The notes under the pieces are model-generated. The model did no database searches. It was not told the DNA's origin and saw nothing but the letters and a program-made list of their open reading frames with translations. Made by a program: the position numbers and the translations under genes. DNA of 51,377 nt, from NCBI GenBank assembly GCA_030603385.1, contig JAUVXW010000034.1, forward strand, positions 1 to 51,377, in the 5' to 3' direction. The stretch is from Promethearchaeota archaeon. GTDB taxonomy: Archaea > Asgardarchaeota > Lokiarchaeia > Sigyniarchaeales > SOKP01. This document shows, one piece after another, positions 7,262 to 50,769 of this stretch (positions within the stretch are counted from its first letter, which is position 1; the number at the start of each line of letters is the position of its first letter).

Positions 7262-7263
7262 AA

Positions 7264-7761: not shown

Positions 7762-7922
7762 TTCTATTACTACCTAATTCCATAATATAAATATTGCCTA
7801 ATAAAATCTTTTAAATATTAATTTATAATTAGATGTAATATCTATGAAATAGATAGAGAAAAGAATACACACAATCTCCAACCATAATTAAAGTTTTATA
7901 AAAAAAAAGTCAATAAATCAAA

Positions 7923-8774
7923 CTACTTCTCTAAAATCTCTCTCACTTTATTTACAATAGCTTTAAATGCTTTTGTAGCTTTATTATCAGGATATTTCAA
8001 AACGAATGGCAATCCTTGGTCTCCTTGTTGACTTATCTCAACTTCAAAAGGAATTTTCCCTAATAATTCAATATTAAAGTCAGTAGCTGCTTTTTCCGCC
8101 CCACCTGGAGGGTATAAATCAATATATTCACCACAATGAGGACAATTAAAGCCTGAATGGTTTTCAATAATCCCAAGAATTTTTCTTTTCATTACCATTG
8201 ACATTTTTATTGATTTTCTTGCATCCATTAAAGCCACTTGCTGTGGAGTTGTAACAACTACAACATTTTCATCTGGAATTAATTGTAATATATCGAGGGT
8301 CTCATCAGAAGTACCTGGTGGTAAATCGCATATTAAATAATCAAGTTCCCCCCAAATGGCATCACCTAAAAACTGTCTTACAGCGCTCATTTTCATTGGG
8401 CCTCTCCAGATAATTGGATCGTCAGGTGTGAGAGTTAAAAATGCCATACTCATTACTTTGATATTTAGGGGCCCATTTATAGGGTAAAATTTTTTAGTAT
8501 CAGCATCAACCCTTGGTTTAAGTTCAGGATCTACACCTAGCATTTTAACAACGTTTGGGCCTGTTATATCAACATCAAGAATTCCTACTCTTAATCCAAC
8601 ACTAGCTAGGCTCATAGCAAGATTAACCGCAACGGTCGTTTTACCAACTCCACCTTTTCCGGAAATGATAACGATTTTATTTTTGATTTTTTCCATATTT
8701 GTTTTTATGTTCTTCTCTCTCTCATCCACCATCATTTCTTTTAAATTGATTTCTGGAATCTCTTCTTCAGACAT
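7923..8774 (-). CDS. Mrp/NBP35 (ApbC) Fe-S cluster carrier ATPase
   Basis: SGKGGVGKT, DVDITGPN, WRGPM, DLPPGTSD, CPHC. Confidence 0.95.
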   Translation of the reverse strand: MSEEEIPEINLKEMMVDEREKNIKTNMEKIKNKIVIISGKGGVGKTTVAVNLAMSLASVGLRVGILDVDITGPNVVKMLGVDPELKPRVDADTKKFYPINGPLNIKVMSMAFLTLTPDDPIIWRGPMKMSAVRQFLGDAIWGELDYLICDLPPGTSDETLDILQLIPDENVVVVTTPQQVALMDARKSIKMSMVMKRKILGIIENHSGFNCPHCGEYIDLYPPGGAEKAATDFNIELLGKIPFEVEISQQGDQGLPFVLKYPDNKATKAFKAIVNKVREILEK

Positions 8775-34328: not shown

Positions 34329-37300
34329 CTAATTAGATTCAATTTCTATTTTTTCTAACATTTTGGGAACTAGAATTTCATCTAATTTTTTAATTTTCAT
34401 CGTAAATTCTGTTATTAATTCTGCAAACTGTTTTCCTTCACTTGCTGAAATAGCATGAATCATTATTCTTTCTTCGTCTATTCCAATCTGTTTCAATAGA
34501 TTTTTCAGATGGTCCATTCGAGGATAAGCATTTTCATTTCCACTTATATAATGGCAATCTCCTAGATGACAGCCTGCTATAAAAACTCCATCAGCACCTT
34601 TTAAAAAAGCTTGTAATATAAAACTTTTTGACATACCACCAGAACACATTACTCGAATTACTCTTATATTGGGGGGATATTGATATCGACTTACACCCGC
34701 TAAATCTGCTCCCGCATAACTACACCAATTGCATAGAAATGCTACTATACGTGGTTTCCCGTTCTTATCGAAAGGTTTGACAGCTTCTTTAATCATCGGT
34801 TCGATCTGAGTGTTCCCAAAATGGCTCATAGTAATTGCAGAAGCAGGGCATTCTGCCATACAAGTTCCGCAACCCTTACAAACAGCTTTAATTACGTGTG
34901 CTTTCTTATTATTAGATGTATATAAACCCATCTGTTTAGTAGATTCTATTAGTTCTATTGCGTTATAAGGACATAGTTCGATACATCTACCACATCCAAT
35001 GCATTTATTTTCATTTACTTGAGAAGTGATGCCTTCAGTTTCTAATATATCTTTAGATAAAATTGTAACTGCCCTAGATGCCGCTGAATTTGCTTGAGAT
35101 ATACTTTCTCTTATATTTGCTGCTCCACGCGCGGTTCCACATAAGAAAATACCATTAGTCGCAAAATCAGAAGGTCTTAGTTTAACATGAGCTTCTAAAA
35201 AGAAGTTATCCTCATTTAGAGGAACTTTTAATATTTTGGCTAAATCAGAATTATCTTCAGGGGCAACTATACCTGTACTTAAAACAGTTAAATCTACACA
35301 AATCTTAAGATTTCCAATATCTCTTCTGTATAACAAATTTACCACCTCATCATCTTCTATTTCGATTTGGGGTGGTTTTTCTTTGTCAAATCTAATGAAA
35401 AGAATTCCTTTTTCTCTTGCTAAATTGTAATATTTTTCTTTAAATCCGTAAGTTCGAATATCTCTATATAAAATGCTTATGTTCAAGCGGGGGTTCATTT
35501 TTTTTGCTTTCAATGCGTTCTTAACAGCTTCAGCACAGCATGTTCTACTGCAGTATGGATGTTCATCATTCCTAGAGCCAACACATTGAACCATAACCAA
35601 GGATTTCAATTTTTTTATTTTTTCTTCATTTGTAAAGAGAATTTCCTCAAATTTTGATTGAGTCACAATTCGTTCATCCCGACCATATAGAAAATCGCTA
35701 CCCTGTGGCTCGTATTCCTTTGCTCCTGTAGCTACGATAATTATTCCATGTGTAAAATTCTTTTTTTGTTTCTCTTTACTGAAAGTAATATCTGTCGTAA
35801 AATTTCCTACATATCCAATAACAGAGTTAATTTCCGTCTCAAGAAAAACATTTATAAATTTATGATTGCTAACCTTTTCTATTAATTCTTGAAGAAACTT
35901 TTGCACATCATTATTTTCTAAAGTTTCATAAATATTTCTAGCAAATCCTCCCAAATATTCATTTTTTTCAACTAAAAATACTTCATAGCCTTGATCCGCA
36001 AGGTTTAAAGATGCAGTCATGCCTGCGATACCCCCCCCAATAATAAGTCCTTGATGATTTATATTAATTTCTTGTTCTTGTAAGGGAACTAAGTTTCTAG
36101 CTTTTGACACAGACATTCTTACCAAATCTTTTGCTTTCTCTGTTGCTTCTTCAGGTTCATGCATATGTACCCATGAACATTGGTCGCGAATATTAGCCAA
36201 ATCAAAAAGATATTTATTCAGGCCAGCTTCTCTAATTGTTTCTTGAAACAATGGCTCATGTGTTCTGGGTGTACATGATGCGACTATTACTCTATTTAAA
36301 TTATGCTCTTTAATTTTTTTTTTAATGTTTGTTTGAGTATCAGCTGAACATGTATATAAATTACTTTCAGCATATATTATATTAGGTAATGTCTTTGCAT
36401 ACTCAACTACTTCAGGAACATTCACAACTCCACCTATATTTATCCCACAGTGACATATAAAAGCACCGATTCTAGGGGGGTCTCCACTGACATCTAGTTC
36501 TTCGGGATATTCTTTTACTGCAACCAAGGTATCTCTCACATCAGATAGATAGACATTAACAGCTCCTGCTGCTGCGCTTGCTTCAACCACAGTTTCGGGG
36601 ATATCTTTAGGTTCCGAAAACATGCCACATACAAAAATTCCTTCTCTTGAGGTTTTTACTGGAGAAAATGGTTTTGTTTTGCAAAAGCCATATTCATTTA
36701 ATTCAATATTCAATTTTTCAGCTAATTCTTTAGCTTTATGAGGAGGTTGTGCTCCAACTGCAAGAACAATAAGATTAAAAATCTCTTCAACAATTTTTCC
36801 ATTTTCAGTTTCATAAGATACTTTAAGATCTTTTGTATCTGGAACTTCTCGAATGCAAGAAATTCTCCTTCGAATATACCTAACACCATATTCTTCTTGA
36901 GCCCGCGTAATGTATTTATCAAAATCTTTACCATATGCTCTAATATCCATTGAAAAAATGGTAGGTTCAACAATATTCATATGTTCTTTAGCAATAACAG
37001 CCTCTTTAGCAGAGCACATACAACACACAGAGGAACAGTATTCAACATCGATGTTTTTATCCCTCGATCCGACACATTGGAGGAAACCTATTTTTATAGG
37101 GATTGTCCCATCAGAAGGACGAATTATTTTTCCAGAAAATGGGCCACTAGCACTTAAAATCCGTTCAAATTGGGTACTAGTAATAACATTTTTAAATTTA
37201 CCATAACCATAAGCTTTAAGAGGTGTGGGATCATATTCATCAAAACCAAGTGCTAATATAACCGCACCCACATCTATATTTATAAATTTTTCTTTAAGTG

Positions 37301-37814
37301 CATAATCGATAGCCTTTGCTTTACATACACCTCTACAAATCCCACATCCAATGCACTTATCTTTATCAATTGAAAAGACTAGAGGTACCGCTTGAGGAAA
37401 TTTTACAGATATTGCCGATCTTTTAGAAAGACCCGCGTTAAATAAATCAATTGCTTCTATCGGGCATGAAATGGCACATAAACCGCAACCTGTGCATTTA
37501 CTTTGATCCAAATATAATGATCTTTGCTTAATTTCAACTGTAAAATTTCCCGGTTGTCCTTCAATTTTCTCAATATTTGAGTTTATCAAAATATTAATGT
37601 TCTCATGTCTTCCTGCTGCTACTAATTTCGGAGCAAGTATACAAATCGCACAATCATTAGTAGGGAAAGTTTTATCTAATTGAGACATAATCCCGCCTAT
37701 ACTCGTTGTGGATTCTACTATGTAGACTTTATAACCAGAATCAGCTAGATCCATAGACGCTTGGATGCCTCCAATTCCGCCTCCAATAACTAAAACAGCA
37801 CCGATCTTTTCCAT
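34329..37814 (-). CDS. hdrA: Tandem HdrA-HdrA-MvhD fusion (heterodisulfide reductase A-like); start set at the ATG of MEKIGAV
   Basis: Two GGGIxG FAD domains, LDKTFPTNDCAIC, two QCVGSR..CS..CC motifs, internal ICHCG/NIRDQCSWVH domain, C-terminal AFLCNWCSY..RVMCSG MvhD. Confidence 0.93.
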   Translation of the reverse strand: MEKIGAVLVIGGGIGGIQASMDLADSGYKVYIVESTTSIGGIMSQLDKTFPTNDCAICILAPKLVAAGRHENINILINSNIEKIEGQPGNFTVEIKQRSLYLDQSKCTGCGLCAISCPIEAIDLFNAGLSKRSAISVKFPQAVPLVFSIDKDKCIGCGICRGVCKAKAIDYALKEKFINIDVGAVILALGFDEYDPTPLKAYGYGKFKNVITSTQFERILSASGPFSGKIIRPSDGTIPIKIGFLQCVGSRDKNIDVEYCSSVCCMCSAKEAVIAKEHMNIVEPTIFSMDIRAYGKDFDKYITRAQEEYGVRYIRRRISCIREVPDTKDLKVSYETENGKIVEEIFNLIVLAVGAQPPHKAKELAEKLNIELNEYGFCKTKPFSPVKTSREGIFVCGMFSEPKDIPETVVEASAAAGAVNVYLSDVRDTLVAVKEYPEELDVSGDPPRIGAFICHCGINIGGVVNVPEVVEYAKTLPNIIYAESNLYTCSADTQTNIKKKIKEHNLNRVIVASCTPRTHEPLFQETIREAGLNKYLFDLANIRDQCSWVHMHEPEEATEKAKDLVRMSVSKARNLVPLQEQEININHQGLIIGGGIAGMTASLNLADQGYEVFLVEKNEYLGGFARNIYETLENNDVQKFLQELIEKVSNHKFINVFLETEINSVIGYVGNFTTDITFSKEKQKKNFTHGIIIVATGAKEYEPQGSDFLYGRDERIVTQSKFEEILFTNEEKIKKLKSLVMVQCVGSRNDEHPYCSRTCCAEAVKNALKAKKMNPRLNISILYRDIRTYGFKEKYYNLAREKGILFIRFDKEKPPQIEIEDDEVVNLLYRRDIGNLKICVDLTVLSTGIVAPEDNSDLAKILKVPLNEDNFFLEAHVKLRPSDFATNGIFLCGTARGAANIRESISQANSAASRAVTILSKDILETEGITSQVNENKCIGCGRCIELCPYNAIELIESTKQMGLYTSNNKKAHVIKAVCKGCGTCMAECPASAITMSHFGNTQIEPMIKEAVKPFDKNGKPRIVAFLCNWCSYAGADLAGVSRYQYPPNIRVIRVMCSGGMSKSFILQAFLKGADGVFIAGCHLGDCHYISGNENAYPRMDHLKNLLKQIGIDEERIMIHAISASEGKQFAELITEFTMKIKKLDEILVPKMLEKIEIESN

Positions 37815-37897
37815 TGATCTATCTCCATTATTAAGCATAAATTTTAAATTTCTTCTATTTTTTTCAATATAAGTCAACCAACTGATCAAAAAAAATT

Positions 37898-39127
37898 TTA
37901 ATAAAGAAATAGGAATTTTCCTATAAAACTTGCTAGATCCATTACTTTTATTTTATTTTTTAACTCTTCATGAACCTCATTTGAATAAAGTTCATTAAGA
38001 TAACATTTGAAATGTGTTAAGCACTTAGGGCAAGGAACAAGTAAATATTCTGCTCCTGTTTTTATTGCTTCTTTAATACGGTTCTCTCTTAACAGTCGAG
38101 AATATTCATTGCAGTTCATAAATCCTACAACACCGCAACAATTGGCATCATCTTTGATATTATCCATTTCAATTAATTCAACCCCAGGAATCATTTTAAT
38201 TAGTTCTCTTGGTGCGTCGTATAATTTACCACCTAAACGCCCTAAACGGCAAGAATCGTGATATGTAACTTTAATATTTTTTCCCTGTGGAAATCTTACA
38301 TTTTCGAGAATATTTTCCTGTAAAAAGAATTCTGAAAAATGCTGTATTTCAAACTTAAAATCTTTAATTACTTTTGGATAATCATATTTCCAAGTTCTAT
38401 ATCCTTCAGCACATCCAATTATAATCTTTTTAACTCCGGCATCTTTATAAAGTTGAACATTGTATTCTGCCAACTTTTTAAAAGTTTCGATATCCCCTCT
38501 TCCCCAAAGCATGTCATGACCGCAACATTTTTCATTTAATACAACCGGAATTTTATCTGCTTCATTTAATAAGCTTAATATAGTTTTTGCGGTGTTGGTA
38601 TACTTAATTTCAAATTTATAAAGCATTTCTTCCATTAAGGGTAAGCATCCTACAAAGTAGGCAATTTCACCTGACTCACTTGTTCTAATTTGAGTTCCTT
38701 TTAAAAAGTCTAATTTATCTGGATGGATGGATCTATCTGCTTGAATTTTTGGAATTATATCGAAAATTCCATCATGTGTTTCACATTGAGTCATTTTTGT
38801 TTTTTCTGTTTCATTGTGAAAAAATGCCTTTCGCAATTCTAAAATTAAATCAGGGATTCTTACACCTGCATTCTCTTGAGTCATTGGGCAATAAATTGTA
38901 CATTGACCACATGTGAGACAATTCCATATATTATGATTTTTTAAAACGTCTTCTATTGGTGAGAAAATTAAATCTGTTACTAAACTTCGTGGAGAAAAGA
39001 TGTCTATATGAGATAATGGACACACAGTGTTACAGCGATTGCAGCTATAGCAATAATTTGCCATGCCGTTTATATTTTCAATTATTTCTCCTGAAATAAG
39101 ACTATTTGTTACGTCAATAGATTTCAT
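37898..39127 (-). CDS. HdrD-like (HdrC-type Fe-S plus CCG domains)
   Basis: CYSCNRCNTVCP, WNCLTCGQCTIYCP, YFVGC, KCCG, YHDSCRLGR, NCCG, CPKC. Confidence 0.88.
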   Translation of the reverse strand: MKSIDVTNSLISGEIIENINGMANYCYSCNRCNTVCPLSHIDIFSPRSLVTDLIFSPIEDVLKNHNIWNCLTCGQCTIYCPMTQENAGVRIPDLILELRKAFFHNETEKTKMTQCETHDGIFDIIPKIQADRSIHPDKLDFLKGTQIRTSESGEIAYFVGCLPLMEEMLYKFEIKYTNTAKTILSLLNEADKIPVVLNEKCCGHDMLWGRGDIETFKKLAEYNVQLYKDAGVKKIIIGCAEGYRTWKYDYPKVIKDFKFEIQHFSEFFLQENILENVRFPQGKNIKVTYHDSCRLGRLGGKLYDAPRELIKMIPGVELIEMDNIKDDANCCGVVGFMNCNEYSRLLRENRIKEAIKTGAEYLLVPCPKCLTHFKCYLNELYSNEVHEELKNKIKVMDLASFIGKFLFLY

Positions 39128-39141
39128 GTCCGGAATAGAAA

Positions 39142-39330
39142 TTATTTATCATCATAAAATTCAAAAAATCCACATTTAGAACATTGAAAACCACTAAAAG
39201 AGGATGTACGTCTATAAATATAATCACTACATTCTAAAGTTGAACCACAGTTAGGACATTTTTCTTTAGTTTTTGTCACTTCATTCTTTTTCTGTTCTAT
39301 TAACATAATTCCCTCCATAAACTTTTTCAA
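39142..39330 (-). CDS. Small zinc-ribbon protein
   Basis: CPNCG...CSKCG; the true start may be later (GGAGG SD before MLIEQ). Confidence 0.65.
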   Translation of the reverse strand: MKKFMEGIMLIEQKKNEVTKTKEKCPNCGSTLECSDYIYRRTSSFSGFQCSKCGFFEFYDDK

Positions 39331-39425: not shown

Positions 39426-39580
39426 ATGACAAGAATAGTAATCATAATATAAAAGTCTTCACACTATATGCAGAAATTCAAACCTTTAATATAGAGATTA
39501 CTATATTATCATTTCTAATATCGAAAACTTTTGATTAATTAATAATTCAAATCCCACATTATGATAATATAAATGATCAG
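39426..39580. promoter_or_regulatory. Three candidate operator sites (7-N6-7 palindrome)
   Basis: ATGACAA-N6-TAATCAT 39426, TTGATTA-N6-AATTCAA 39531, ATGATAA-N6-TGATCAG 39561. Confidence 0.5.
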
Positions 39581-39695: not shown

Positions 39696-41009
39696 CTAAT
39701 GCGCAACACAGGATATGCAAGGGTCAAATGCTCTAATAACAGTCTGAACTTTTTTCTTAACTAAATTTATATCTCCAGTTTTATTGTATAATTCTTGAGC
39801 GAATTTTGTTATAATATCGTTAATTATTGAAATGTTAATTTCAGTAGGGATGAATATTTTTGCTTTTTTAATCACATTATTATCATTTACGTAATAATGA
39901 TGTAGTAACATACCTCTTGGTGCTTCAATAACTCCTATACCCTCCGAATTTTTCAAAGAGGTAAGAGATGGGAGCAATGTTCGCCTATTTAACACAGGCT
40001 CTTCTAAGATTTTCAATCCTTGTTGAGATTCAAAGTACATTTCTAATAACCTAAGAAAGTTAGCGAATAAAACTCCATTTTGCCAAGATTTATCAAAATA
40101 TTCAAGATAAGTATTGATTTTATCAATTTCATAATTTTCGGTAATTTTATATCGGGAAATAGGACCAACTAAAAATCTTTTACTTTTATCAAAATGGAAA
40201 TCAATTCCTCTTAGATTGATATCCTTTTCAAAATAGGAAGAATAGTTTTTTTCTTCGAATTCGATTGAATTTCTTTCATTTTCTTTAATTTTTAAGGTCC
40301 CCCTGTACCTATCAAAATTATCGAAGTTATTTAAACCCATATACATTACATTTGGGAGATCATATTCTTTGGGAGGAACATGATTGGAAAATATATCAAT
40401 AAATTTCTCAATTATCCATTCCAAATTGATTATAGCCTTTTGAAAATATTTTCGCGCTATAGAAATATTTTTTCGAGAAGGTAAATAAATAAGTCCTCCT
40501 GGAATTGGAGTAATCAAATGAACAGATCTTCCGCCAAAAATTCTTTCGATCTCGTTGCCTATTTTAATTAATTCATATACATTTGTCGTTAATTGAGAGT
40601 CATATCTGATCAATTCGTATGGAGAGAATGGTTTTTGACTAATCTCAAAAATTTGAAAAAGATCCGGTAAGGATTGGAAGAAAAAATGCATAGAATGTGA
40701 TTTAATTAATTCTCCAAATAGTAATAGATACCTTAAAAGAATAGATTGTTCTGGTACAGCTATTTCAAACATATTTTCTATTGCTTTACAGCTAGCAATT
40801 GTTTGAGATGCATAACATAAACCACATATCCGAGATACAATTTTAGGAACGTCGTCTAGTTTTTTTCCAATTAAAAAGCTTTCAAATCCTCGATTTGATC
40901 CAATTTCGAAATCAACACTTGAGATTTCATCGTTCTTTACTAAAATCTTTACAGTTCCATGGCCCTCAACACGAGTACATACATCCACTATTTTTAACAG
41001 TACTATCAC
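39696..41009 (-). CDS. mvhA: Group 3 [NiFe]-hydrogenase large subunit (MvhA-like) without C-terminal extension
   Basis: RVEGHG, SRICGLC, EAPRG, DPCISCVAH followed directly by the stop. Confidence 0.88.
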   Translation of the reverse strand: MIVLLKIVDVCTRVEGHGTVKILVKNDEISSVDFEIGSNRGFESFLIGKKLDDVPKIVSRICGLCYASQTIASCKAIENMFEIAVPEQSILLRYLLLFGELIKSHSMHFFFQSLPDLFQIFEISQKPFSPYELIRYDSQLTTNVYELIKIGNEIERIFGGRSVHLITPIPGGLIYLPSRKNISIARKYFQKAIINLEWIIEKFIDIFSNHVPPKEYDLPNVMYMGLNNFDNFDRYRGTLKIKENERNSIEFEEKNYSSYFEKDINLRGIDFHFDKSKRFLVGPISRYKITENYEIDKINTYLEYFDKSWQNGVLFANFLRLLEMYFESQQGLKILEEPVLNRRTLLPSLTSLKNSEGIGVIEAPRGMLLHHYYVNDNNVIKKAKIFIPTEINISIINDIITKFAQELYNKTGDINLVKKKVQTVIRAFDPCISCVAH

Positions 41010-41764
41010 CTTCTTAATTTTGGTTTTGAAAAACGATAAAATATTCCTTCATAATTTTTTAAGTCCTCAGAAAGACTAAGCAAACTTAAAAAATTGATGG
41101 TATTTGATGTAAAATCTTTTGAAACAGGACCCATACAACCATCACAGGGAAGTCCGAGTTTTATACATTTACTCTCGCATCCTTCTCGAGTTATCGGTCC
41201 CAAACATAGAATGCCTTTTTTCAAAAAGCAATCTAAATTTTCTTCACCAAGAACAATTTCATCAGGATTAGGATTTATTTTAATTATATGTGTATCTAAA
41301 TTCTCCTCCATATTTTCTCTTAATGAACAACTAGAGCATAAAACTTTTTCAGATAGGTTTGTATCTTTATTTTCTATTAATCTAATTAAAATATTTCCTA
41401 ACAATTTAGAGGGAGGAGGACATCCGGGAATAATTCCGTCAATTTCAATATAAGTTGAGATTGGTTTTATATTTCTTGAATTCGAAAGGCTTAAAATCCC
41501 TCCAAAAGCTGCACATGTTCCAAGGGCATACACTTTTTTAGCATGTTTTCTAACTTCTTTGAGGAGACCAATTTCCGAGTCTTCAGAAATACAGCCTTCT
41601 ACTAAAGCAATATCACAATCTTCAATTTTTTCTACATCTAAGATAAATGGAAAATGAATTATTTTAGTTCTTTCAAGGAATTGAGGAAAAATATCTAAGG
41701 AGATTAATGTTGAGATACAACCGCTGCACGATGTTAAAGAAATTATAATAACTCTAGGCTTCAA
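41006..41764 (-). CDS. mvhG: [NiFe]-hydrogenase small subunit (MvhG-like)
   Basis: SCSGC, GTCA, PGCPP, CLGPITREGC, PCDGCMGP. Confidence 0.9.
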   Translation of the reverse strand: MKPRVIIISLTSCSGCISTLISLDIFPQFLERTKIIHFPFILDVEKIEDCDIALVEGCISEDSEIGLLKEVRKHAKKVYALGTCAAFGGILSLSNSRNIKPISTYIEIDGIIPGCPPPSKLLGNILIRLIENKDTNLSEKVLCSSCSLRENMEENLDTHIIKINPNPDEIVLGEENLDCFLKKGILCLGPITREGCESKCIKLGLPCDGCMGPVSKDFTSNTINFLSLLSLSEDLKNYEGIFYRFSKPKLRR

Positions 41765-44303
41765 ATTTGATCTCCTCCATCAAATGGTTATAGAAATTAT
41801 TAACAATTTCAGCAAATTTACTGCCCTCAACAGCGTTCATATGTTCAAGAATAACACGATTACTGTATTTTGGACCTAAAATCTTTTTTAATAATTTGAT
41901 TTTATTATTAATTCTTTCTACTCCATCAATATATCGACATGCGTTCTCATTACATCCAATAACCATAACTCCATCAAATCCACGCTCAAATGATTTAATT
42001 ATAAAATTTATATCAACACGACCAGTACATGGAACTCGCACGATGAAAATATTTGGATTATACGAAATTTTTTTAAGGCCAGCATCATCAGCTGCGGCAT
42101 ATCCACAAGAACCACAACAAAATGCGATAATTTTCGGACTTTTCTTATACTTTGAAAGCACTTCAATTGTCTTAAGAAACTTTTCAGAAGTGTCTATATT
42201 CAAATCTATTGCATTTGTAGGACACACACTTACACATGTTCCACATCCTTTACATTTGAATTTATCAATGCTAATTTTATCAGATTCGATTGTTATTGCA
42301 TTATATGGACAAATTTTAGAACATAAGCCACATAAACCACATTTTTCCTCATTTATTTCTATTCCACTAAACTCTGCTATTAAGTAATCCTGTGAAAGTA
42401 ATGAAATCACTTTTAAAGCGACATTATTAGCTGTAGAAATTGTGGAATTATAATCTAAAGGGCCAAAAATAGTTCCAATCCCATATATTCCTGAAGCTAA
42501 GGTTTCTTCACTCATAAAGCCATAATCATCCAAGGTAAAATCCAAAGTTTTTCTAAATGATTTTAAATCTTTATTTGGAACTATTGCTAGATTTAATACA
42601 ATCAAATCGCTTGGATATTCCATTGAATCTGCAATAATCCGCTTTTCATTATTTTTCTCAACAATTTTTATCTTATTAACATAATGGAATCTGGGGTCCC
42701 TTGAACTAAGTAAAAAATCATTATTGTCATTAATTTTGTTTAAATCATAGAAAACATTTACGGAGCATTCAGGATTTTTTACATTTATACAACTTAGATA
42801 TTTTAAAGCAAGAATGTCATGAAGTTTATGTTGATGATCAGGAGAACATGCGCATTGAATAATTGAAATTCTCTTTGCAGGTTTTTTATTAGAAATTTTT
42901 AATATTTCCCCACCTGTGAAACCGTCTGAAGAAAGCATTCTTTCAAATTCAGGGGACGTAATTATGTCATTTTGTGGATCATAATGGTATTGCTCTAAAT
43001 CAGAGTATAAATCGGCACCAATTGCAATGACTTTTACACCAACTTTGATCCTAATTTTCTCTTGTTTTTGATCAAGAGTAATTGCTTTATTTATACAAGC
43101 ACGTTCGCAAATTCTACAATTAAGACAACTATCTATATCTTCAATATCGATTAAAGGAACATAAGGATATGAATGAATAAATGGGATGTATATAATTTTT
43201 CTATTAATTAAACCAAATTCGTACTGATTGGATTTTTCTATAGTACATACATCTATGCATTGTTTACACCCCGTGCATTTTTTCTCATCTACATAACGGG
43301 GGTTTTTAAGTAAATCAATTGTAAAATTACCAACCTCTCCTGATACACTCTCGATTTCGGTATTAGTTAAAATTTTTATATTTTTTTCTTTTACTAATTC
43401 AGCTATCAATTCAGAAATGAAACAAATAGAACAATCACCCATTTTATAGATTCGATCCCACCTAGCTACCTTTCCTCCCAGGGTTGGTGATTTTTCAATA
43501 AGATATACTTTAATTCCTGCTCGTGCTAAATTTAATGAGAGCGTCATGCCTGCAATTCCACCACCTATGATTGCACAACTCTTTTCTATTTCAACTCTCT
43601 TAATTTTTACATTCTTCTGAAGAATTACCCGTTCAATGGCAGCTTCAATTAATAATTTTGCTTTTTCTAAAATTAGTGTAGGATCTATATTATCCACTTT
43701 AAATTGATGCACCCAACAGCATTGTTCTCTGATATTTGCTATTTCTATGTTTGCGCGTTCAATAACATCCTCAAAAATGCGTTCAAAAATATGTTGATGT
43801 GTCTTTGGGGAACATGCGGCAATAACAACCTTGTTTAAGAAATTATCTTTAACCCATTTGGCAATCTTAATAAAATTTTTTTGCTGGCATAGATTTTCAA
43901 AAACTTTGACAGAAACAACATATTTTAACTTATTTACGTAGTTTTCAAGGGCATTAACATTTATAATATTTGAGATTTCTGTATTGCAATTACAAAGAAT
44001 AACCCCAACTCGACTTATTTCGCTTCCCTTTGAATTTAAATATTCATCAATATCTTCTCCTGATAAAATCCTTTTATTAATATTTATTATCTTAAGGACC
44101 CGCTTTCCTTCTTCTGTAAGAAAATATGATTTCTTATCTTTATCTATTAGATATCCAATTTTTTTGAGATGGAAATTTAACTGACCCGTTGTTTCTAAAC
44201 CAAGTCTTTCCATTAAATCTGTATAGGGAATATAACCCTCATTTTCTAGAAGGTGTAATATCCTTCTTCTAAATGGATGAGATAATATTGAATATATATC
44301 CAT
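41754..44303 (-). CDS. Winged-helix (ArsR-like) HTH-HdrA-MvhD fusion protein
   Basis: aa 1-75: LSHPFRRRILHLL...YTDLMERLG..TTGQLNFHLKK...YFLTEEG; then HdrA (CNC, AACSP, NIREQC, GGGIAG, DCSIC, ferredoxins) and MvhD (AFCC..C.Y, RVPCTGRV). Confidence 0.88.
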   Translation of the reverse strand: MDIYSILSHPFRRRILHLLENEGYIPYTDLMERLGLETTGQLNFHLKKIGYLIDKDKKSYFLTEEGKRVLKIININKRILSGEDIDEYLNSKGSEISRVGVILCNCNTEISNIINVNALENYVNKLKYVVSVKVFENLCQQKNFIKIAKWVKDNFLNKVVIAACSPKTHQHIFERIFEDVIERANIEIANIREQCCWVHQFKVDNIDPTLILEKAKLLIEAAIERVILQKNVKIKRVEIEKSCAIIGGGIAGMTLSLNLARAGIKVYLIEKSPTLGGKVARWDRIYKMGDCSICFISELIAELVKEKNIKILTNTEIESVSGEVGNFTIDLLKNPRYVDEKKCTGCKQCIDVCTIEKSNQYEFGLINRKIIYIPFIHSYPYVPLIDIEDIDSCLNCRICERACINKAITLDQKQEKIRIKVGVKVIAIGADLYSDLEQYHYDPQNDIITSPEFERMLSSDGFTGGEILKISNKKPAKRISIIQCACSPDHQHKLHDILALKYLSCINVKNPECSVNVFYDLNKINDNNDFLLSSRDPRFHYVNKIKIVEKNNEKRIIADSMEYPSDLIVLNLAIVPNKDLKSFRKTLDFTLDDYGFMSEETLASGIYGIGTIFGPLDYNSTISTANNVALKVISLLSQDYLIAEFSGIEINEEKCGLCGLCSKICPYNAITIESDKISIDKFKCKGCGTCVSVCPTNAIDLNIDTSEKFLKTIEVLSKYKKSPKIIAFCCGSCGYAAADDAGLKKISYNPNIFIVRVPCTGRVDINFIIKSFERGFDGVMVIGCNENACRYIDGVERINNKIKLLKKILGPKYSNRVILEHMNAVEGSKFAEIVNNFYNHLMEEIKFEA

Positions 44304-44399
44304 CTTCTAAATCCCTCTCTTTTTCACTATTTTCAAACAGGATATTTAATTCTACCCAAATTAAAAAAAAAATTAATTTTTAAAAATTGATTATGGTAC

Positions 44400-45563
44400 T
44401 TAATTGTCATCATTTTCTAAAGTTAAAGGTGGAGATTTCCATGTAATCGATTTATTTTTCATAAAGTTTTCAAATCGTTCTATCTTTAACTGACAGAATT
44501 GAGAAATTTTCTCTTTCATTTTCTCTTTGCTTGTTTCATCCAATTTAAAAGATTTAATTACTCCTGCATCAATTACTTTCTTAATTATATCTTTTCCCTT
44601 TTTAGTGCGAGTGATTACTGTAGTAAATTTATCCATAGAACCTAATCCTCCAAATGAGATATCAGCATAAATATTAGTGAAATCGTTACAAGCAAGACAA
44701 GGTTGACGCATATAATCTTTTATACTCTCAAAGGGGATATGGATTATTTTTTGAGTGGCGCCTCTGTTTTTCAATTTAATGATTAGATCTTCTTTAATGT
44801 TTATTCTTTCAATATTTTCGAATTTCAGATTGAATTCTTTTTCAAACTTCTCAATTCTGAGCTTATCAAAAAAGAAGTTCTCGTAACAAAATAATCCTAA
44901 ACAAAGCTCAATATTCTGTGAAGGAATAATACCTAAACTTTGCATGCATCTAATAGTATAAATTTGGCACGGTGTTCCAACTACAGCTAATCTTTTAAAT
45001 TTGTAATGTCTTAATTGGGGAAGTGAACTTGTATATGTGTGAAATTTCTGTAATTCATTTACCTGTAGAGATAAATCTAATTTAACTCCTGATGCCTCTA
45101 TTAAATCTTTTTTATTTCTAGCAATTGTGGCTTCTCTAGAAAAGGCAGTTTTTGTTTTAGCAACGATAGCTCCATCAATTACTTTCTTCTCTATTAGATA
45201 GTTTATTACTGAGTTTACTACGCCTCCATCTGTTCCAAATTTTAAAAAATCTTTATCTGTGGCTTGACATGAGTAGATATTGTCGATAAATCCAAAGGGC
45301 ATGGATGAAAAATTTGTGAAATTATAAGTTTTATTAAGATCATCGTCTAAAATATGAGTCTGTGGACAAATTAAATAACAAATTCCACACTCAAGACATT
45401 TTTCCTCATTTATATATTTTGGAGGTGAATTAGGATCCATCATACCAATTACATCATTTTCAATTGAATTACAAAAACTTACACAACCTCCACAATGTTG
45501 GCATATACCAGGTTCGTGAACTTCTTTAATTAAATCCTTAAAATTTTTTATTTTCATTATCAA
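44400..45563 (-). CDS. FrhB/FdhB-family F420-binding subunit with N-terminal ferredoxin (FpoF-like)
   Basis: CQHCGGC, CLECGIC, TDGGVV, VGTPCQ, GLFC, C..C.DFT..ADISFGG. Confidence 0.9.
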   Translation of the reverse strand: MIMKIKNFKDLIKEVHEPGICQHCGGCVSFCNSIENDVIGMMDPNSPPKYINEEKCLECGICYLICPQTHILDDDLNKTYNFTNFSSMPFGFIDNIYSCQATDKDFLKFGTDGGVVNSVINYLIEKKVIDGAIVAKTKTAFSREATIARNKKDLIEASGVKLDLSLQVNELQKFHTYTSSLPQLRHYKFKRLAVVGTPCQIYTIRCMQSLGIIPSQNIELCLGLFCYENFFFDKLRIEKFEKEFNLKFENIERINIKEDLIIKLKNRGATQKIIHIPFESIKDYMRQPCLACNDFTNIYADISFGGLGSMDKFTTVITRTKKGKDIIKKVIDAGVIKSFKLDETSKEKMKEKISQFCQLKIERFENFMKNKSITWKSPPLTLENDDN

Positions 45564-45607: not shown

Positions 45608-45794
45608 TTGGTAAATATTATGATCACTATGATAAATATTATTGTCAAAATATATAAATGTATCTTTTTCGTATAATTAAGGAGTGACAAACCTCAATTG
45701 AATATTAGGAAAATGATAAAGATTATATTAATTCTGGATCATAGGTAGATCCGATTCGTTCATTAAATAAAAAATTGATAAGTAGATTTATCAA
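45608..45794. promoter_or_regulatory. Three candidate operator sites in the divergent frhB/hdrA promoter
   Basis: TTGGTAA-N6-TGATCAC 45608, ATGATAA-N6-TTGTCAA 45629, perfect TTGATAA-N6-TTATCAA 45775. Confidence 0.55.
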
Positions 45795-45960
45795 AATAAC
45801 AAATATTTTTCTTATCAAATTTTTTAAATTTATCCCACCTCATTAATTGGAATATAGCATTAAAAAGCGATTATAATTACATTTTTGTATTTTTTTCAAA
45901 ATTGAAAAAATAAATTTTATTATAAATAATAATTGGTGATATTTTACAAAGGTGGATTAG

Positions 45961-47991
45961 ATGTCTGAAGAGCAGACCATTAGATTAGGCGTATATATCT
46001 GTAGATGAGGAGTAAATATTGGTGCTAGCATTGATTGCGATATTGTTAGAAATTATGTTGAACTACTCACTGGTGTCATAATTGTCCGAGTAAATGATTT
46101 TACTTGCAGTGATCCAGGACAAAAACTTATTAAGAACGATATTTTAGATTTAGATTTGAATCGGATTGTTGTTGCTGCTTGTACACCAAAAATTCATGAA
46201 TCCACCTATCGAGCAGTATTAATTGAAGCGGGATTAAGCCCATATTATTTTCAAATGGTTAATTTACGCGAACAGTGCTCTTTTATTCACTCAGATGACA
46301 AAAAAAATGCCACTGAAAAAGCTATAAGATTAGTACAAGCAGGAATAAATCGTGCACGGGAATTAGAAATTATCCCTCATAAAAAAATATCGGTGGAAAA
46401 AGCTGTTTTAGTTATTGGTGCTGGAATTGCTGGGATGAATGCTGCTTTAGATTTAGCAAACCAAGGGATTCCTGTTTATTTAGTCGAAAAAGAAGCCACA
46501 ATTGGTGGAAAAATGGCACAATTAGACAGAATTTACCCCACCGATGATTGTGGAATATGAGTACTCGCACCTATTATGGTAAGTACTTCAAAGCACCCAA
46601 ATATAGAATTATTTACTTATAGTGAAATTATTGAATTTGGTGGTATCCCTGGCAATTATAATGTTAAAATACGAAAAAATCCCCGTTATGTTAATGAAAA
46701 GAAATGTACTGGTTGCGGATTATGTACAATAAAATGCCCAATAAAAGTTCCGAACGAATTCAATAGAGGTATTGGCGAAAGGAGCGCAATTTACATACCT
46801 TTTCCACAAGCTGTTCCTAAACTTGCTTTAATTGATAGGGATGTCTGTATAGAATGTAAAAACTGTCAAAGAGACTGTCCAGCAGAAGCTATTGAATTTG
46901 ATCAAGAACCCGAGTTTATCGATTTAAGAGTTGGAGCAATCATTGTTGCTACTGGATGGGATGAATATCCAATTATGAAATATAACGATTATAAATATGG
47001 TATTTATCCTGACGTAATTACACAGATAGAGCTAGAGCGAATATTAAGTCCAATTGGACCAACAGGGGGTCATCTTTATAGGATTTCTGATGGAAAAACC
47101 CCAAAAACAGTAGCAATGATTCAATGTGTTGGTTCGAGAACCTTAAAAGGGAACCCCTATTGTTCTGTAGTTTGTTGCAGTGTTGCTCTTAAAAACGCTC
47201 AACTGCTAAAACAAGAATATCCGGATATGGAGATTGTTATTTTTTATATTGATGTTCGAGCATGGGATAAAGGAAATGAAGAATATTACAGAAAAGCAAG
47301 AGAAGCAGGTATAATGTTGGTTCGGGGAAAAGTAGGAGATATAAGAGAAGATCCAGAAACAAAAAAGCTAAAAGTTCGAGCTTCTTCAACTTTAACGGGT
47401 GATTTAATTACTTTGAACACGGATTTAGTCGTATTATCAACAGGCATGGTCCCTTCTAAAAATGCAGCAAAAACTATTGATATTTTAGGATTAAGCAAGG
47501 ATTCGAATGGTTTTTTACGTGAGATTCATGGATGCCTAAAACCTCAAGAGACAAATAATATGGGTATTTATATATGTGGATGTGCCGCTGGACCCAAAAA
47601 TATCCCTTATTCAGTATCAACAGCGTTAGCCGCAGCAAGTAAGGCATCAACATTACTTTCTAAAGATACAATAATTCAAGAATTAATTATTGCTGAAATA
47701 GATGAAGATCTGTGCATGGGTTGTCGTAGATGTGAAAAACTCTGTTATAATAATGCAATTATAGTTAATGGAGAAGGTATTGCAGAAGTAGATGATTTAA
47801 AGTGTAAAGGTTGCGGTGTTTGCGTTTCATCATGTCCCGCCCGAGCAATCGACCTCAAATATTACAGAGAAAAACAATTTGTCGAAGAAATGAAAGGGAT
47901 TTGTAGTATTGAAATTGAATCTATTGAATCTATTGAATCTATTGAATTTGTAATGAAAGAGATTGAAGCATTAGCTCCTCATAAAATTTAA
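45961..47991 (+). CDS. hdrA: Selenocysteine-containing heterodisulfide reductase subunit A, 676 aa, U16 and U200 (split into two ORFs in the track)
   Basis: ATG 45961 after AAGGTGG. GVYICR-TGA(46006)-GVNI aligns to GAFICHCGINI, and TDDCGI-TGA(46558)-VLAP aligns to TNDCAICILAP in the paralogue. All in one frame, with a 3' SECIS-like hairpin. Confidence 0.93.
47914..47947 (+). repeat. 9-bp tandem repeat ATTGAATCT, about 3.8 copies (IES repeats in the HdrA tail)
   Basis: Directly visible in the sequence. Confidence 0.9.
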
Positions 47992-48248: not shown

Positions 48249-48366
48249 TTGACAATTTTTATTTTCAAATCATGTTTATTAATATGGTAGAAATGTGATT
48301 TTGAACTTTATACTGCCATAAAAGAAAAATTCACTAAAGTTATAGATTGACAATAAAGCTTGTCAA
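48249..48366. promoter_or_regulatory. Two candidate operator sites upstream of the mtd operon
   Basis: TTGACAA-N6-TTTTCAA 48249 and perfect TTGACAA-N6-TTGTCAA 48347. Confidence 0.55.
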
Positions 48367-48451: not shown

Positions 48452-49105
48452 GTGAGAATTAAGATGGAAGTTTTAGAAATTAAACCTGTTAGGAATAAAG
48501 AAATTATAGTATATCTGGTAAAGATTTCTAATATAAAATCAAAACCTAATGCAAACGTAAATTTATTTGAGTTTTTAAGCCGTATAAATGTTAATTTTGC
48601 CACAATTGATTTAGAAAATGAGAACCTAAGAAGTTTTAATAAGTCAACCTTAGCAAAAATATTGGAACAATATAAAATTCCTTATTATACAGTAGATATC
48701 CCAGAGTATGCGATGGGTTATCTTATGACGGAAATAATAGGGAGAGAAGATCAAGTTAACGAATTAACAGAAGAATTTCTTAGTATGAGAAATAAAGAAT
48801 CTATAAAAGGGCTGAATTTAAAATCTTGGATTGATTTTCTCAAGGAAGAGATCGATGAAAAGAAACTATTTTTACAATTAAAGTTAAGACCAGAATGGAT
48901 TGTTAAAAAAATTCTAGATATAATAAGAAGTAAAAATAATAATGAAATCACCTTCGTCCATTTTGCTCAGGATAACATATTTAATGAAACAATGAACCTT
49001 TTAAAAGATTTAGATATAAAAGTTAAGGTTTATGACCATAAAAAAGAAAATTTTAATTTAAATTTAATTATAAATGAGGAGGAATTAGAACAATGGAAGT
49101 ATTAG
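48452..49105 (+). CDS. Hypothetical protein paralogous to the N-terminal domain of the downstream Mtd fusion
   Basis: MEVLEIKP / IPYYTVDIPEYA / LRPEWIV versus MEVLELKP / IPYKMVDISENA / VREAWMM. Confidence 0.75.
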   Translation: MRIKMEVLEIKPVRNKEIIVYLVKISNIKSKPNANVNLFEFLSRINVNFATIDLENENLRSFNKSTLAKILEQYKIPYYTVDIPEYAMGYLMTEIIGREDQVNELTEEFLSMRNKESIKGLNLKSWIDFLKEEIDEKKLFLQLKLRPEWIVKKILDIIRSKNNNEITFVHFAQDNIFNETMNLLKDLDIKVKVYDHKKENFNLNLIINEEELEQWKY

Positions 49106-50769
49106 AATTAAAACCATTAAAGAAAAAAAGTTTAAAATTGGTGTTGATAGAAAGTGAATTTCCAATAGATTGGTGGTTTGAGACATCAGCACAGAAAAAG
49201 CACGATTTAGTTTGGAATTTAAATCTAGTTTCGAGGGAGTATCTTAATCTAATTGAAGAACTTATGGAAAAATATAACCCAAACTTCGCTGTAGAAGAGA
49301 AGGGGAGTCGTTGGGAGGATACGATATCTCATGAAGATCCTATAGAGACATTATTTAGAGAACATGGGATTCCCTATAAAATGGTTGATATTTCAGAAAA
49401 CGCAGAGTATTATCTTTCTTCAAATTTGGAAGATCTAAGAAATTTTATAAAGCAGTTAACAAAATCGATTAAAAATACTCAGAAGAATGAAGGCCATAAG
49501 GATGATTATTTGTTTCTACGACAATTATTATGGAAGGAATATTTACAAAAAGAATATGATACGCAAGAAGATGAAATAAGATATAAGGTTCGAGAAGCTT
49601 GGATGATGATGGGAATTCTTAAATTGGCGAAAAAATTGGAAGATAAAAAGCTAAATGCATTTTTTATCTGTGACTCTAAACATTTCAAAGGCATTACTCA
49701 ATTAACAGAAGAATTGGGTATAGAAACTGAAGAAATAAAAATTAAACGATTAGTTAAAGTTATAAATAATCCTGGCTCTGAATCGATTAAAAATATAATT
49801 AAAAAATCTATACTTGAATTATCTCCAATTAAAGTGAAAAAGAAGGAGTCATTAGAAAAGATATGTTATTTCTTTGACACAGACGACAACGCTTCTCCTT
49901 TCGATATAAATATGGCTTATGATGCGGGATTTGATGTTGTTATCCCTATTAGTAAAATGACCGCTGATCAAGTCCCAAAACTTGTCCAAGATGCTATTTT
50001 TTCCAGAAAACCAAAAGCTCCTACCACGTTCTTTATTGGTGGATCCAATGTTAAAGAGGGCGAAAAAATAGCTAAAAAAGTAATGGAATCGTTGGTACCT
50101 CCTTTTGAATGCCCGGTAATAATTGATCCTCGTGGTTCGCATACTACTGCTTCTTCAATAGTCGCTAAAACTATTGAAATTGCTAAGAAAAATGATTTGT
50201 ATGATTTGAAAGGGAAAAAAGTAGTTATCTTTGGAGCAGGGCCTGTTGGAAGAATTGCAGCAATACTAGCAGCAAAATTAAAATGTAAAACTTATTTGGT
50301 TGAAACTTGGGAAAAATCAAGTGAGAATTTCATTAAAAACCTAGCAAAAGAATTAATGGAAGAAGTTGGAGTAAAAGATACTGAAATTATTGGAGTTTTT
50401 GCACCAAATGATGAAAAGAAATTAGAAATAGTAAAAGATGCAGATATAATTTGGACTCTAGCTGCTGCCGGTGTAAAAATTTTATCAAAAGAATTACTAT
50501 TTAAACTCCAAAACAAAATTATAATCGATATTAATCTAGTCCCTCCTTATGGAGTTGAGGGTTTAAAGCCAAAAGATGATTATAAAGAAATATACCCAAG
50601 TATATTCGGAATTGGAGCATTGGCTTTAGGGCGTTTAAAATCTAAAATTGAAGCAGATATCCTTAAAGAGGCATCGAATACTAAAGGAAAAAAAGTCTTT
50701 GATTATAATTATGCATTTGCACAAGCAAAGAAGATCTTGTTCGGAAATAGTATAAAAATCTCTACTTAA
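49093..50769 (+). CDS. NAD(P)-dependent methylene-H4MPT dehydrogenase (MtdA/MtdB family) with an extra N-terminal domain of about 250 aa
   Basis: SPFDINMAYDAG, QDAIFSR, FIGG, DPRGSHTTA, GAGPVG, DINLVPPYGVEG, GALALG. Confidence 0.88.
   Translation: MEVLELKPLKKKSLKLVLIESEFPIDWWFETSAQKKHDLVWNLNLVSREYLNLIEELMEKYNPNFAVEEKGSRWEDTISHEDPIETLFREHGIPYKMVDISENAEYYLSSNLEDLRNFIKQLTKSIKNTQKNEGHKDDYLFLRQLLWKEYLQKEYDTQEDEIRYKVREAWMMMGILKLAKKLEDKKLNAFFICDSKHFKGITQLTEELGIETEEIKIKRLVKVINNPGSESIKNIIKKSILELSPIKVKKKESLEKICYFFDTDDNASPFDINMAYDAGFDVVIPISKMTADQVPKLVQDAIFSRKPKAPTTFFIGGSNVKEGEKIAKKVMESLVPPFECPVIIDPRGSHTTASSIVAKTIEIAKKNDLYDLKGKKVVIFGAGPVGRIAAILAAKLKCKTYLVETWEKSSENFIKNLAKELMEEVGVKDTEIIGVFAPNDEKKLEIVKDADIIWTLAAAGVKILSKELLFKLQNKIIIDINLVPPYGVEGLKPKDDYKEIYPSIFGIGALALGRLKSKIEADILKEASNTKGKKVFDYNYAFAQAKKILFGNSIKIST

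Follow-up and report, generated by a model that had tools for sequence, protein, structure and literature searches.

A winged helix–HdrA–MvhD fusion of Asgard archaea and a conserved palindrome at its own promoter suggest a self-regulating hydrogenase complex

Introduction

In enterobacteria, the flavoenzyme PutA carries a DNA-binding domain and represses its own divergent promoter in a manner that depends on the redox state of its FAD; it has a ribbon-helix-helix fold, its chemistry is that of proline, and it leaves the DNA by binding to the membrane. The regulatory [NiFe] hydrogenases HoxBC/HupUV belong to group 2b and signal via the histidine kinase HoxJ and the response regulator HoxA, and a missing C-terminal extension of the large subunit is a trait of H2-sensing hydrogenases. 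Here, we analyze a protein of Asgard archaea that is closest to these systems in its logic, to the Mvh-Hdr complexes and HdrA2 by homology, and to the ArsR repressors, including archaeal ones, in its DNA-binding domain. It is an 849 amino acid (aa)-long fusion of a winged helix-turn-helix (wHTH) with HdrA and MvhD, and it is encoded together with the subunits of a [NiFe] hydrogenase on a stretch of 51,377 nucleotides (nt) from a Promethearchaeota archaeon (contig JAUVXW010000034.1 of assembly GCA_030603385.1, positions 1 to 51,377; the whole stretch is called the window in the following).

In structural models of the Mvh-Hdr and Elp-Hdr complexes, the high-potential electron travels from FAD to HdrB/C via the cluster HA4, HA3 is the shuttle cluster on a "mobile arm" made up of HdrA's N- and C-terminal domains together with MvhD, MvhG and MvhA, and HA5 and HA6 are located in the inserted ferredoxin domain of HdrA (PMC13580544, PMC12350162).

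All current models of how the eukaryotic cell arose from an Asgard archaeon and a bacterium give hydrogen exchange a central place, and to our knowledge almost nothing is known about H2 sensing and hydrogenase regulation in Asgard archaea. A new result of this analysis is the palindrome TGAYAA-N6-TTRTCA on the fusion's own promoter. Sequence conservation and this predicted operator lend good support to a DNA-binding, self-regulating role of the fusion, and control of the DNA binding by H2 or redox state is plausible. We consider it probable that the fusion and its partners form a self-regulating "trigger enzyme", that is, a hydrogenase complex with H2- or redox-responsive DNA binding.

Results and discussion

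A winged helix is fused to HdrA and MvhD across the Asgard archaea

The genes in question and the domains of the fusion, which were assigned from the open reading frames (ORFs), Pfam and NCBIfam matches, alignments and AlphaFold2 (AF2) models with their predicted local distance difference test (pLDDT) values, are the following:

44400–45563, minus strand: frhB/fdhB-like flavo-iron-sulfur gene (FrhB_FdhB_N and FrhB_FdhB_C matches), heading the transcription unit, in one clade only
41754–44303, minus strand: fusion gene, 849 aa, wHTH-HdrA-MvhD (ORF and Pfam/NCBIfam)
44064–44303, minus strand: fusion aa 1–80, ArsR-type winged helix-turn-helix (Pfam DUF7347, PDB profile search, AF2, Foldseek)
44013–44063, minus strand: fusion aa 81–97, linker between the winged helix and the HdrA N-terminal domain (AF2 pLDDT <50 at aa 82–95)
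42159–44012, minus strand: fusion aa 98–715, HdrA core (alignment to the HdrA of 8RVU and 5ODC, E 1e-102 to 1e-111)
41754–42140, minus strand: fusion aa 722–849 and stop codon, MvhD-like [2Fe-2S] domain (Pfam FlpD, 121 bits; 5ODC chain D, E 1e-23)
41006–41764, minus strand: mvhG-like hydrogenase small subunit (Oxidored_q6 and VhuG matches), 11-nt overlap with the fusion gene
39696–41009, minus strand: mvhA-like [NiFe] large subunit (NiFeSe_Hases match), 4-nt overlap with mvhG

The original prediction for this locus, made from the letters of the window and a list of its ORFs, had described a four-gene operon. The ORFs are as described, and the overlaps of the last three make the fusion gene, mvhG and mvhA translationally coupled; the frhB-like gene, however, lies 96 nt away from the fusion gene and stands directly upstream of it in only ~20 of 80 loci, all from close relatives. 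In most genomes, the fusion gene has as its upstream neighbour a divergent pair that consists of orf217 and a gene for a 558-aa Mpt_N/NAD-binding (MtdB-like) protein. The invariant core is fusion-mvhG-mvhA, with mvhG and mvhA behind the fusion gene in every locus with enough sequence.

Residues 2–73 of the fusion match Pfam DUF7347 (41.3 bits, cut-off 27.6), which Pfam lists as of unknown function, residues 98–842 give an end-to-end match to the HdrA2 type in NCBIfam (575 bits), and residues 725–842 match FlpD/MvhD in Pfam (121 bits). The HdrA core is arranged as an N-terminal [4Fe-4S] domain, an FAD/thioredoxin-reductase domain into which a ferredoxin is inserted, and a C-terminal ferredoxin. 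The AF2 model of the full-length protein is moderate (pLDDT 71, predicted template modelling score 0.44) and served for secondary structure and the flexible linker only; the low values at aa 82–95 fit a flexible tether, and the linker sequence (NKRILSGE) is conserved despite them.

The original prediction would have fallen with a fusion unique to one assembly, but this combination of domains recurs widely. A query with its first 100 residues against proteins of comparable length gave at least 149 protein clusters, nearly all ~849 aa long and with an identical Pfam set, in which the N-terminal domain is 62–96% identical and which are labelled as coming from Promethearchaeota/Lokiarchaeota and from Hel-, Hod-, Hermod-, Thor- and Odinarchaeota. 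Scanning a single genome per species, we obtained 518 matching stretches, of which the best 80 were all on Asgard contigs. The fusion was found in 41 of 61 genomes sampled from the class of the window and in 34 of 151 genomes sampled from the Asgard phylum, in the families f1, f15, f19, f22 and f10 and with identities down to 38–44%. Even distant fusions, with winged helices only 35–38% identical and also matched by HTH_20, agree with it in architecture and have mvhG and mvhA as neighbours too. No other domain of the fusion is as well conserved as the winged helix, and the motif TGQLNFH of its recognition helix is invariant. The wHTH-HdrA-MvhD fusion is real and old. The author of the original prediction knew of no described HTH-HdrA regulator; our literature search likewise found no description of an HTH-HdrA fusion, and a paper on archaeal fusion proteins lists HdrA-HdrA-MvhD fusions and no HTH fusion.

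Two observations concern the sampling. The Asgard fusion with mvhGA and orf217-mtd also occurs on DATKTW010000111.1, which is labelled "Candidatus Nanopelagicaceae bacterium" and is probably a mis-binned contig. The three searched genomes of the class that are complete or nearly so, G055 (1 contig, 4.4 Mb), G054 and G010 (10 contigs each), yielded neither the fusion nor the mtd-like gene with these queries; they are suspected to be cultured strains, and if so, this may explain why the fusion has gone unnoticed, and a cultured host is perhaps unavailable.

A conserved palindrome lies at the promoter of the fusion operon

An exact-arm inverted-repeat tally was too strict for the motif, and it was a degenerate pattern that revealed the palindrome. 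In 40 aligned divergent intergenic regions, which are AT-rich and otherwise poorly conserved, TGAYAA-N6-TTRTCA forms two conserved blocks, and 39 of these regions carry a site with at most one mismatch. The promoter-proximal block consists of TTTATATA, 2–4 nt, TGACAA-N6-TTATCA and TAGnGA, and 40 of 58 promoter-proximal sites have this TATA-plus-palindrome layout at 80–99 nt upstream of the first gene. The palindrome would thus come to lie after the TATA box and before the expected transcription start, where archaeal repressors typically sit. The window contains nine sites with at most one mismatch, compared with 1.76 expected; seven of them fall within three promoter regions of the cluster, including four one-mismatch sites. 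The sites are listed here without a strand, along with a half-site; the genes that they precede are described at the end.

45630–45647: predicted operator, perfect, 3 nt downstream of the TATA box TTTATATA (45651–45658, minus strand) of the frhB-fusion-mvhGA unit
45776–45793: distal predicted operator, perfect, in the divergent region between frhB and the HdrA paralogue Sec-hdrA; conserved block 1 of the intergenic alignment
45811–45818: half-site TTGATAAG beside the distal operator
48348–48365: predicted operator, perfect, upstream of the orf217/mtd-like promoter
48250–48267: one-mismatch site, second site at the orf217/mtd-like promoter
39427–39444: predicted operator, one mismatch, 1 nt downstream of the TATA box TTTTATAT of the s62-hdrD-hdrAA unit
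39562–39579: one-mismatch site, second site of the s62-hdrD-hdrAA unit

At 39427, the layout TATA-palindrome-TAGTGATCA matches that of the frhB promoter. The 3.89-Mb genome has five perfect sites, three in this cluster and two inside ORFs, and 6 of the 23 non-coding sites with at most one mismatch in the whole genome lie in this cluster. The only other pair of non-coding near matches, at C31:76872 and 76936, was considered as a sign of further regulon members and judged to be due to chance, as its surroundings are small hypothetical genes and it overlaps the start of an ORF.

The palindrome follows the fusion gene through changes of its neighbours

Of the 92 perfect sites in 78 loci (1.16 Mb), 47 were located at positions −500 to −1 of the fusion gene and 25 upstream of frhB where this gene is present, and the 5 kb from the fusion start codon, i.e. 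the coding sequence of the operon, contained no perfect site. A fusion of 37% identity that is preceded by unrelated genes (TPR, SRAP and others) has a perfect site ~45 nt before its start codon. The site is found 56–62 nt upstream in all five loci of family f15, with fusions of 40–44% identity and a GC content of up to 41%, and 96–97 nt upstream of the fusion in both loci of family f22. When five genomes of these distant families, with fusions of only 40–60% identity, were searched as a whole, each had one to three perfect sites, one of which preceded the fusion gene by less than 100 nt; for one of these genomes, it was the sole perfect site in 3.8 Mb. In three more genomes of the family of the window, one or two of six to seven perfect sites lay within 350 nt upstream of the fusion, and genomes without a detected fusion had one to six perfect sites. 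That the palindrome follows the fusion gene through neighbour changes and deep divergence is, by sequence comparison, strong evidence for linkage, and a genome-rare conserved palindrome on the fusion's own promoter, as seen in families f1, f15 and f22, would be expected of a DNA-binding protein that regulates itself.

In the class sample, 40 genomes had both the fusion and the mtd-like gene, 1 had only the fusion, 6 only the mtd-like gene and 14 neither; the genomes are related, and these counts are not independent. Of the six genomes with only the mtd-like gene, four were inspected. One (L089) ends at a contig break next to frhB and has the operators. Another, from the same genus (L088, G060:C30:58000-73260), has no operator in 15 kb and, at 6623–8550 after the mtd-like gene, contains a 71-aa remnant of mvhA (62% identity to aa 137–207), which suggests recent loss of the operon by rearrangement. 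The mtd-like paralogues of L090 and L091 have no operators.

Among the window proteins and the 80 loci, we found no other conserved HTH gene in the neighbourhood of the fusion. As alternative binders of the palindrome, we rejected orf217, which has no HTH or family match and is missing from loci that keep the operator, and the one further DUF7347 paralogue that the genome encodes, a membrane protein of 277 aa whose recognition helix differs. Covariation of recognition helix and operator gave no clean specificity rule: in family f15 the helix is changed (TGLFNYHL) and the palindrome is the same, and family f19 (SGKLNFHL) is without it.

The N-terminal domain resembles ArsR-type repressors

The recognition helix of the N-terminal domain comprises aa 39–48 (TTGQLNFHLKK), the wing aa 53–62 and the dimerisation helix aa 64–80. 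Folded alone by AF2, the domain reached a pLDDT of 89.6, with helices at 3–7, 10–22, 27–34 and 39–48, strands at 53–56 and 59–62 and a final helix at 64–80; in this model, the fold follows the ArsR/SmtB order alpha1-alpha2-alpha3-alphaR-beta-beta-alpha5. A profile of 36 relatives matched the ArsR-family protein 1Y0U best in the PDB (E 6.7e-9), followed by ArsR, PH1932, PagR, HlyU, Phr, CadC and SmtB, and the nearest structures in Foldseek were YodB, CadC, NolR (on DNA), ArsR, Rv0081 and CggR, with template modelling scores of 0.6–0.7 for YodB, CadC, NolR and ArsR. The nearest solved structures are all DNA-binding regulators, some of them solved on DNA.

Two copies of the winged helix were modelled with a score of 0.65, compared with 0.01 for the best control; the runs agreed in at least 93% of the contacts and the pLDDT of the partner was at least 86. 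Of 30 solved homo-pairs, 20 attained the mark of 0.65, as did 1 of 23 proteins solved as single chains. The modelled interface (aa 2–8, 13 and 68–89) corresponds to the alpha1/alpha5 interface of ArsR and would leave the recognition helix and the wing free. The good score may mirror the likeness to solved ArsR dimers, and thus indicates likeness rather than proof. Profile, fold and modelled dimer agree with the original prediction of an ArsR-like winged helix at the N-terminus.

With the ArsR/SmtB repressors (1Y0U, Phr 2P4W, PH1932) and SurR of Thermococcales, the winged helix has in common the fold, the signature HPxRxxIL...HLKxL, the alpha1/alpha5 dimer (modelled here) and a palindromic operator near the TATA box (predicted here). 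The fusion differs from them in that it has no metal or CxxC site and that a 750-aa redox-enzyme body replaces the small sensing site. Residues 1–97 contain no Cys and the classical ArsR/SmtB metal or thiol site (Cys/His in alpha3N or alpha5) is not present; judged by these residues, the winged helix is not a classical metal sensor.

The HdrA-MvhD body has lost the ligands of one cluster

In an alignment to 8RVU and 5ODC, the canonical HCVGSRD...CSRVCC reads QCACSPDHQ...HKLHD in the fusion, which leaves three of four Cys missing, while no such loss affects the FAD motif, the Cys of the N-terminal domain, the DCSIC pair, the two ferredoxin domains or the Cys of MvhD. CVGSR...CSxxCC is intact in both of the adjacent HdrA paralogues. 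This difference had been noted in the original prediction and holds, with the qualification that the loss is a property of the whole family and not special to this copy: in 117 homologues, the first Cys is retained in only 28%, whereas the other Cys sets, among them Cys 729/730/733/759/784/789 of MvhD, are 96–100% conserved. The missing ligands are probably those of HA4. No hdrBC genes were found in the conserved unit (synteny of the 80 loci), and an HdrD-like gene 570 nt downstream is present in the closest relatives only. Lacking the HA4 ligands and an hdrBC in its conserved unit, the complex is ruled out as a canonical heterodisulfide reductase, yet it could still transfer electrons among H2, flavin and ferredoxin.

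The fusion shares with MvhAGD-HdrABC of methanogens (5ODC, 8RVU, 9SW2) the domain order of HdrA, the FAD site, the N-terminal cluster, the DCSxC pair, the two ferredoxin domains and the partners MvhD, MvhG and MvhA. In contrast to the methanogen complex, it adds a winged helix, joins MvhD to HdrA and is without the Cys of the cluster that feeds HdrBC, and the conserved unit has no hdrBC and an MvhA without C-terminal extension. HdrA2 of Methanosarcina (HdrA-MvhD, NCBIfam NF040770) has the C-terminal MvhD fusion in common with it, as seen in the end-to-end match noted above, but the score is far under the family cut-off of 1100, the predicted DNA-binding domain is additional, and the linkage is to a hydrogenase and not to hdrB2C2. 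The fusion also scores below the NCBIfam equivalog cut-offs for HdrA, and it departs from HdrA proper in two defining respects, the HA4 ligands and the partnership with HdrBC.

The hydrogenase is of the Mvh type

The mvhA-like protein has the motifs RICGLC and DPCISCVAH, and its best PDB matches are chain D of 7T2R and MvhA (5ODC chain F); by sequence, this large subunit belongs with the group 3 (Mvh-type) [NiFe] hydrogenases and not with group 2b. It ends at the His of DPCISCVAH, and 68 of 72 orthologues (loci L001–L080) end at DPCxxCxxH, so that there is no C-terminal peptide for a maturation protease to remove. With HoxBC/HupUV and HoxJ-HoxA, the system would share a hydrogenase that sets the transcription of hydrogenase genes (proposed here), and it has the missing C-terminal extension in common; it differs in that it is group-3-like and that the DNA-binding domain is part of the same chain as the electron-transfer partner of the hydrogenase. 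The neighbourhood contains no kinase that might act as a HoxJ-type partner.

In Elp-Hdr of Methanothermobacter, an FrhB/FdhB-like flavoprotein feeds HdrA via an MvhD homologue (PMC12350162), a precedent for the frhB-like gene, which differs in being an addition of one subclade and in standing beside a hydrogenase. The coupling to the F420 redox state that the original prediction had offered as an alternative to H2 is not supported; neither F420 nor FrhB belongs to the conserved unit.

A self-regulating hydrogenase complex and its alternatives

We infer the winged helix to be the binder of the operator, and likewise the sign of the regulation and its control by redox state or H2. In the arrangement that we propose, the HdrA-MvhD body would form a complex with the MvhG/MvhA [NiFe] hydrogenase encoded by the overlapping downstream genes and, without HA4, would not act as a heterodisulfide reductase. 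The winged helix would dimerise via alpha1 and alpha5 and bind TGAYAA-N6-TTRTCA, at its own operon in the classic repressor position between the TATA box and the transcription start, and further copies would be bound at the promoters of neighbouring redox and C1 genes, namely orf217 and the MtdB-like gene and, in this clade, Sec-hdrA and hdrD-hdrAA. It would hang by a linker of ~15 residues on the HdrA N-terminal domain, which in homologues is part of the swinging mobile arm. Reduction of the module by H2 (or its oxidation) would then alter the geometry or the availability of the winged-helix dimer and thereby set the expression of the hydrogenase and its partners. PutA likewise has an N-terminal DNA-binding domain on a flavoenzyme and operators in its own divergent promoter region; control by the flavin is only proposed for the fusion, and fold and chemistry differ, with no homology between the two.

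More specifically, and only tentatively, wHTH-HdrA-MvhD/MvhGA might be a one-component H2 sensor in which H2 oxidation at the [NiFe] site reduces the flavin/iron-sulfur chain and rotation of the arm, transmitted by the linker, makes the ArsR-type dimer leave or bind its operator, switching Asgard archaea between H2-consuming and H2-producing modes of their Wood-Ljungdahl/Hdr metabolism. The module may have been repurposed as a sensor, as the original prediction put it, or may equally be an enzyme that regulates too.

Several observations weigh against a self-regulating, H2- or redox-responsive complex. DNA binding by the winged helix is deduced from linkage and conservation. Among 11 fusion-bearing genomes searched as a whole, 2 had no perfect site within 1 kb of the fusion, and the four loci of family f19 and the single f10 locus are without the canonical palindrome. 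As the winged helix has no Cys or metal site, any signal must come via the linker. The original prediction had held that a dimeric HdrA suits the binding of a palindrome; this is not straightforward, because the HdrA N-terminal domains are on separate mobile arms in the solved (Mvh-Hdr)2 complexes (PMC13580544), and the modelled dimer uses alpha1/alpha5 instead. A 1:1:1 translationally coupled enzyme subunit would be an unusual transcription factor, though PutA is a precedent, and the missing ligands were assigned to HA4 by elimination from published descriptions and not from coordinates.

A simpler scheme would be plain autorepression, in which the winged helix binds the operator without H2 or redox control, as negative feedback on the amount of the complex or as an anchor of the nascent complex, and the module is purely metabolic. 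The operator and its linkage to the fusion fit this scheme equally well, every cofactor site but one is conserved, the winged helix is without sensing residues, and the genome encodes only one [NiFe] large subunit besides the mvhA-like protein (at C31:67151-68512), which suggests a metabolic role. We nevertheless consider plain autorepression unlikely: a DNA-binding domain on a big cofactor-rich body is the typical build of one-component sensors, the winged helix is joined to that part of HdrA which, in homologues, changes position with turnover, and the putative regulon consists of redox and C1 enzymes.

It is quite improbable that an unlinked factor binds the palindrome and that the winged helix, without binding DNA, serves as a protein-protein or assembly domain, for example in docking the FrhB-like protein or orf217. 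Winged helices do act as protein-binding modules in many archaeal and eukaryotic complexes, and family f19 keeps the winged helix without the canonical palindrome. However, the operator travels with the fusion gene across families and neighbour changes and is essentially confined to the fusion locus in each genome, and the regulator of a site that is limited to a single locus is usually encoded close by. All of the closest relatives in sequence and structure are DNA-binding repressors, the recognition helix does not vary, the domain has a basic pI of 9.5, and FrhB and orf217 are missing from many loci that keep the winged helix.

A dedicated H2 sensor without catabolic role, an analogue of HoxBC/HupUV with a built-in output domain, would account for the loss of the ligands of the cluster that feeds HdrBC, for the absence of hdrBC from the conserved unit and for the large subunit without C-terminal extension, which H2-sensing hydrogenases also lack. 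Against this, the two ferredoxin domains, which carry electrons outward in Hdr, are fully conserved, and the sequence groups with group 3 and not with group 2b. The genome encodes 15 FlpD/MvhD-type domains (four with two in-frame TGA codons each) and one other [NiFe] large subunit, which makes a purely sensory role not obvious, and the enzyme may be the cell's Mvh; we therefore regard the dedicated sensor as highly doubtful. An artefact of assembly or gene calling is refuted by the continuous ORF of 838–866 aa in hundreds of independent assemblies from several sources.

The analysis provides a widespread protein, a precise 18-bp target sequence and a defined set of putative target genes, which makes the proposal testable with recombinant protein and short DNA probes and without a cultured host. 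If correct, it would extend the idea of trigger enzymes to flavin-based electron-transfer complexes and present the first HdrA module without an HdrBC branch and the first tied to DNA. Should the H2-sensor version hold, it would present the first hydrogenase complex to read H2 directly into transcription, and at the same time the first member of the electron-bifurcation machinery that binds DNA.

Neighbouring genes

The genes behind the further predicted operators are putative members of the regulon:

45961–47991, plus strand: HdrA paralogue (Sec-hdrA), divergent from the frhB-fusion-mvhGA unit, with in-frame TGA codons 16 and 200; CVGSR...CSVVCC kept
48452–50769, plus strand: orf217 (48452–49105) and the 558-aa Mpt_N/NAD-binding (MtdB-like) protein (49093–50769)
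34329–39330, minus strand: s62, HdrD-like gene (Fer4 and two CCG domains) and a 1186-aa HdrA-HdrA-MvhD, putative members in this clade

Codon 16 of Sec-hdrA (TGA at 46006–46008) lies in the CR-U-GVN of the N-terminal cluster motif, and the gene call (table 11) is split at the second TGA; Sec-hdrA probably encodes a protein with two selenocysteines. The orf217 product weakly resembles the N-terminal half of the MtdB-like protein encoded next to it (23% over 160 aa, E 6e-7), and in other genera this half is a gene of its own (~241 aa) that precedes a 331-aa Mtd-like gene. The 1186-aa HdrA-HdrA-MvhD (34329–37889, minus strand) has two full CVGSR...CSxxCC sets and is located behind the HdrD-like gene, whose best NCBIfam match is TfrB. 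Before the HdrD-like gene, s62 (39142–39330, minus strand) encodes a 62-aa zinc ribbon (CPNC...CSKC) that is 54–87% identical in the closest loci and has a weak S27ae-like match.

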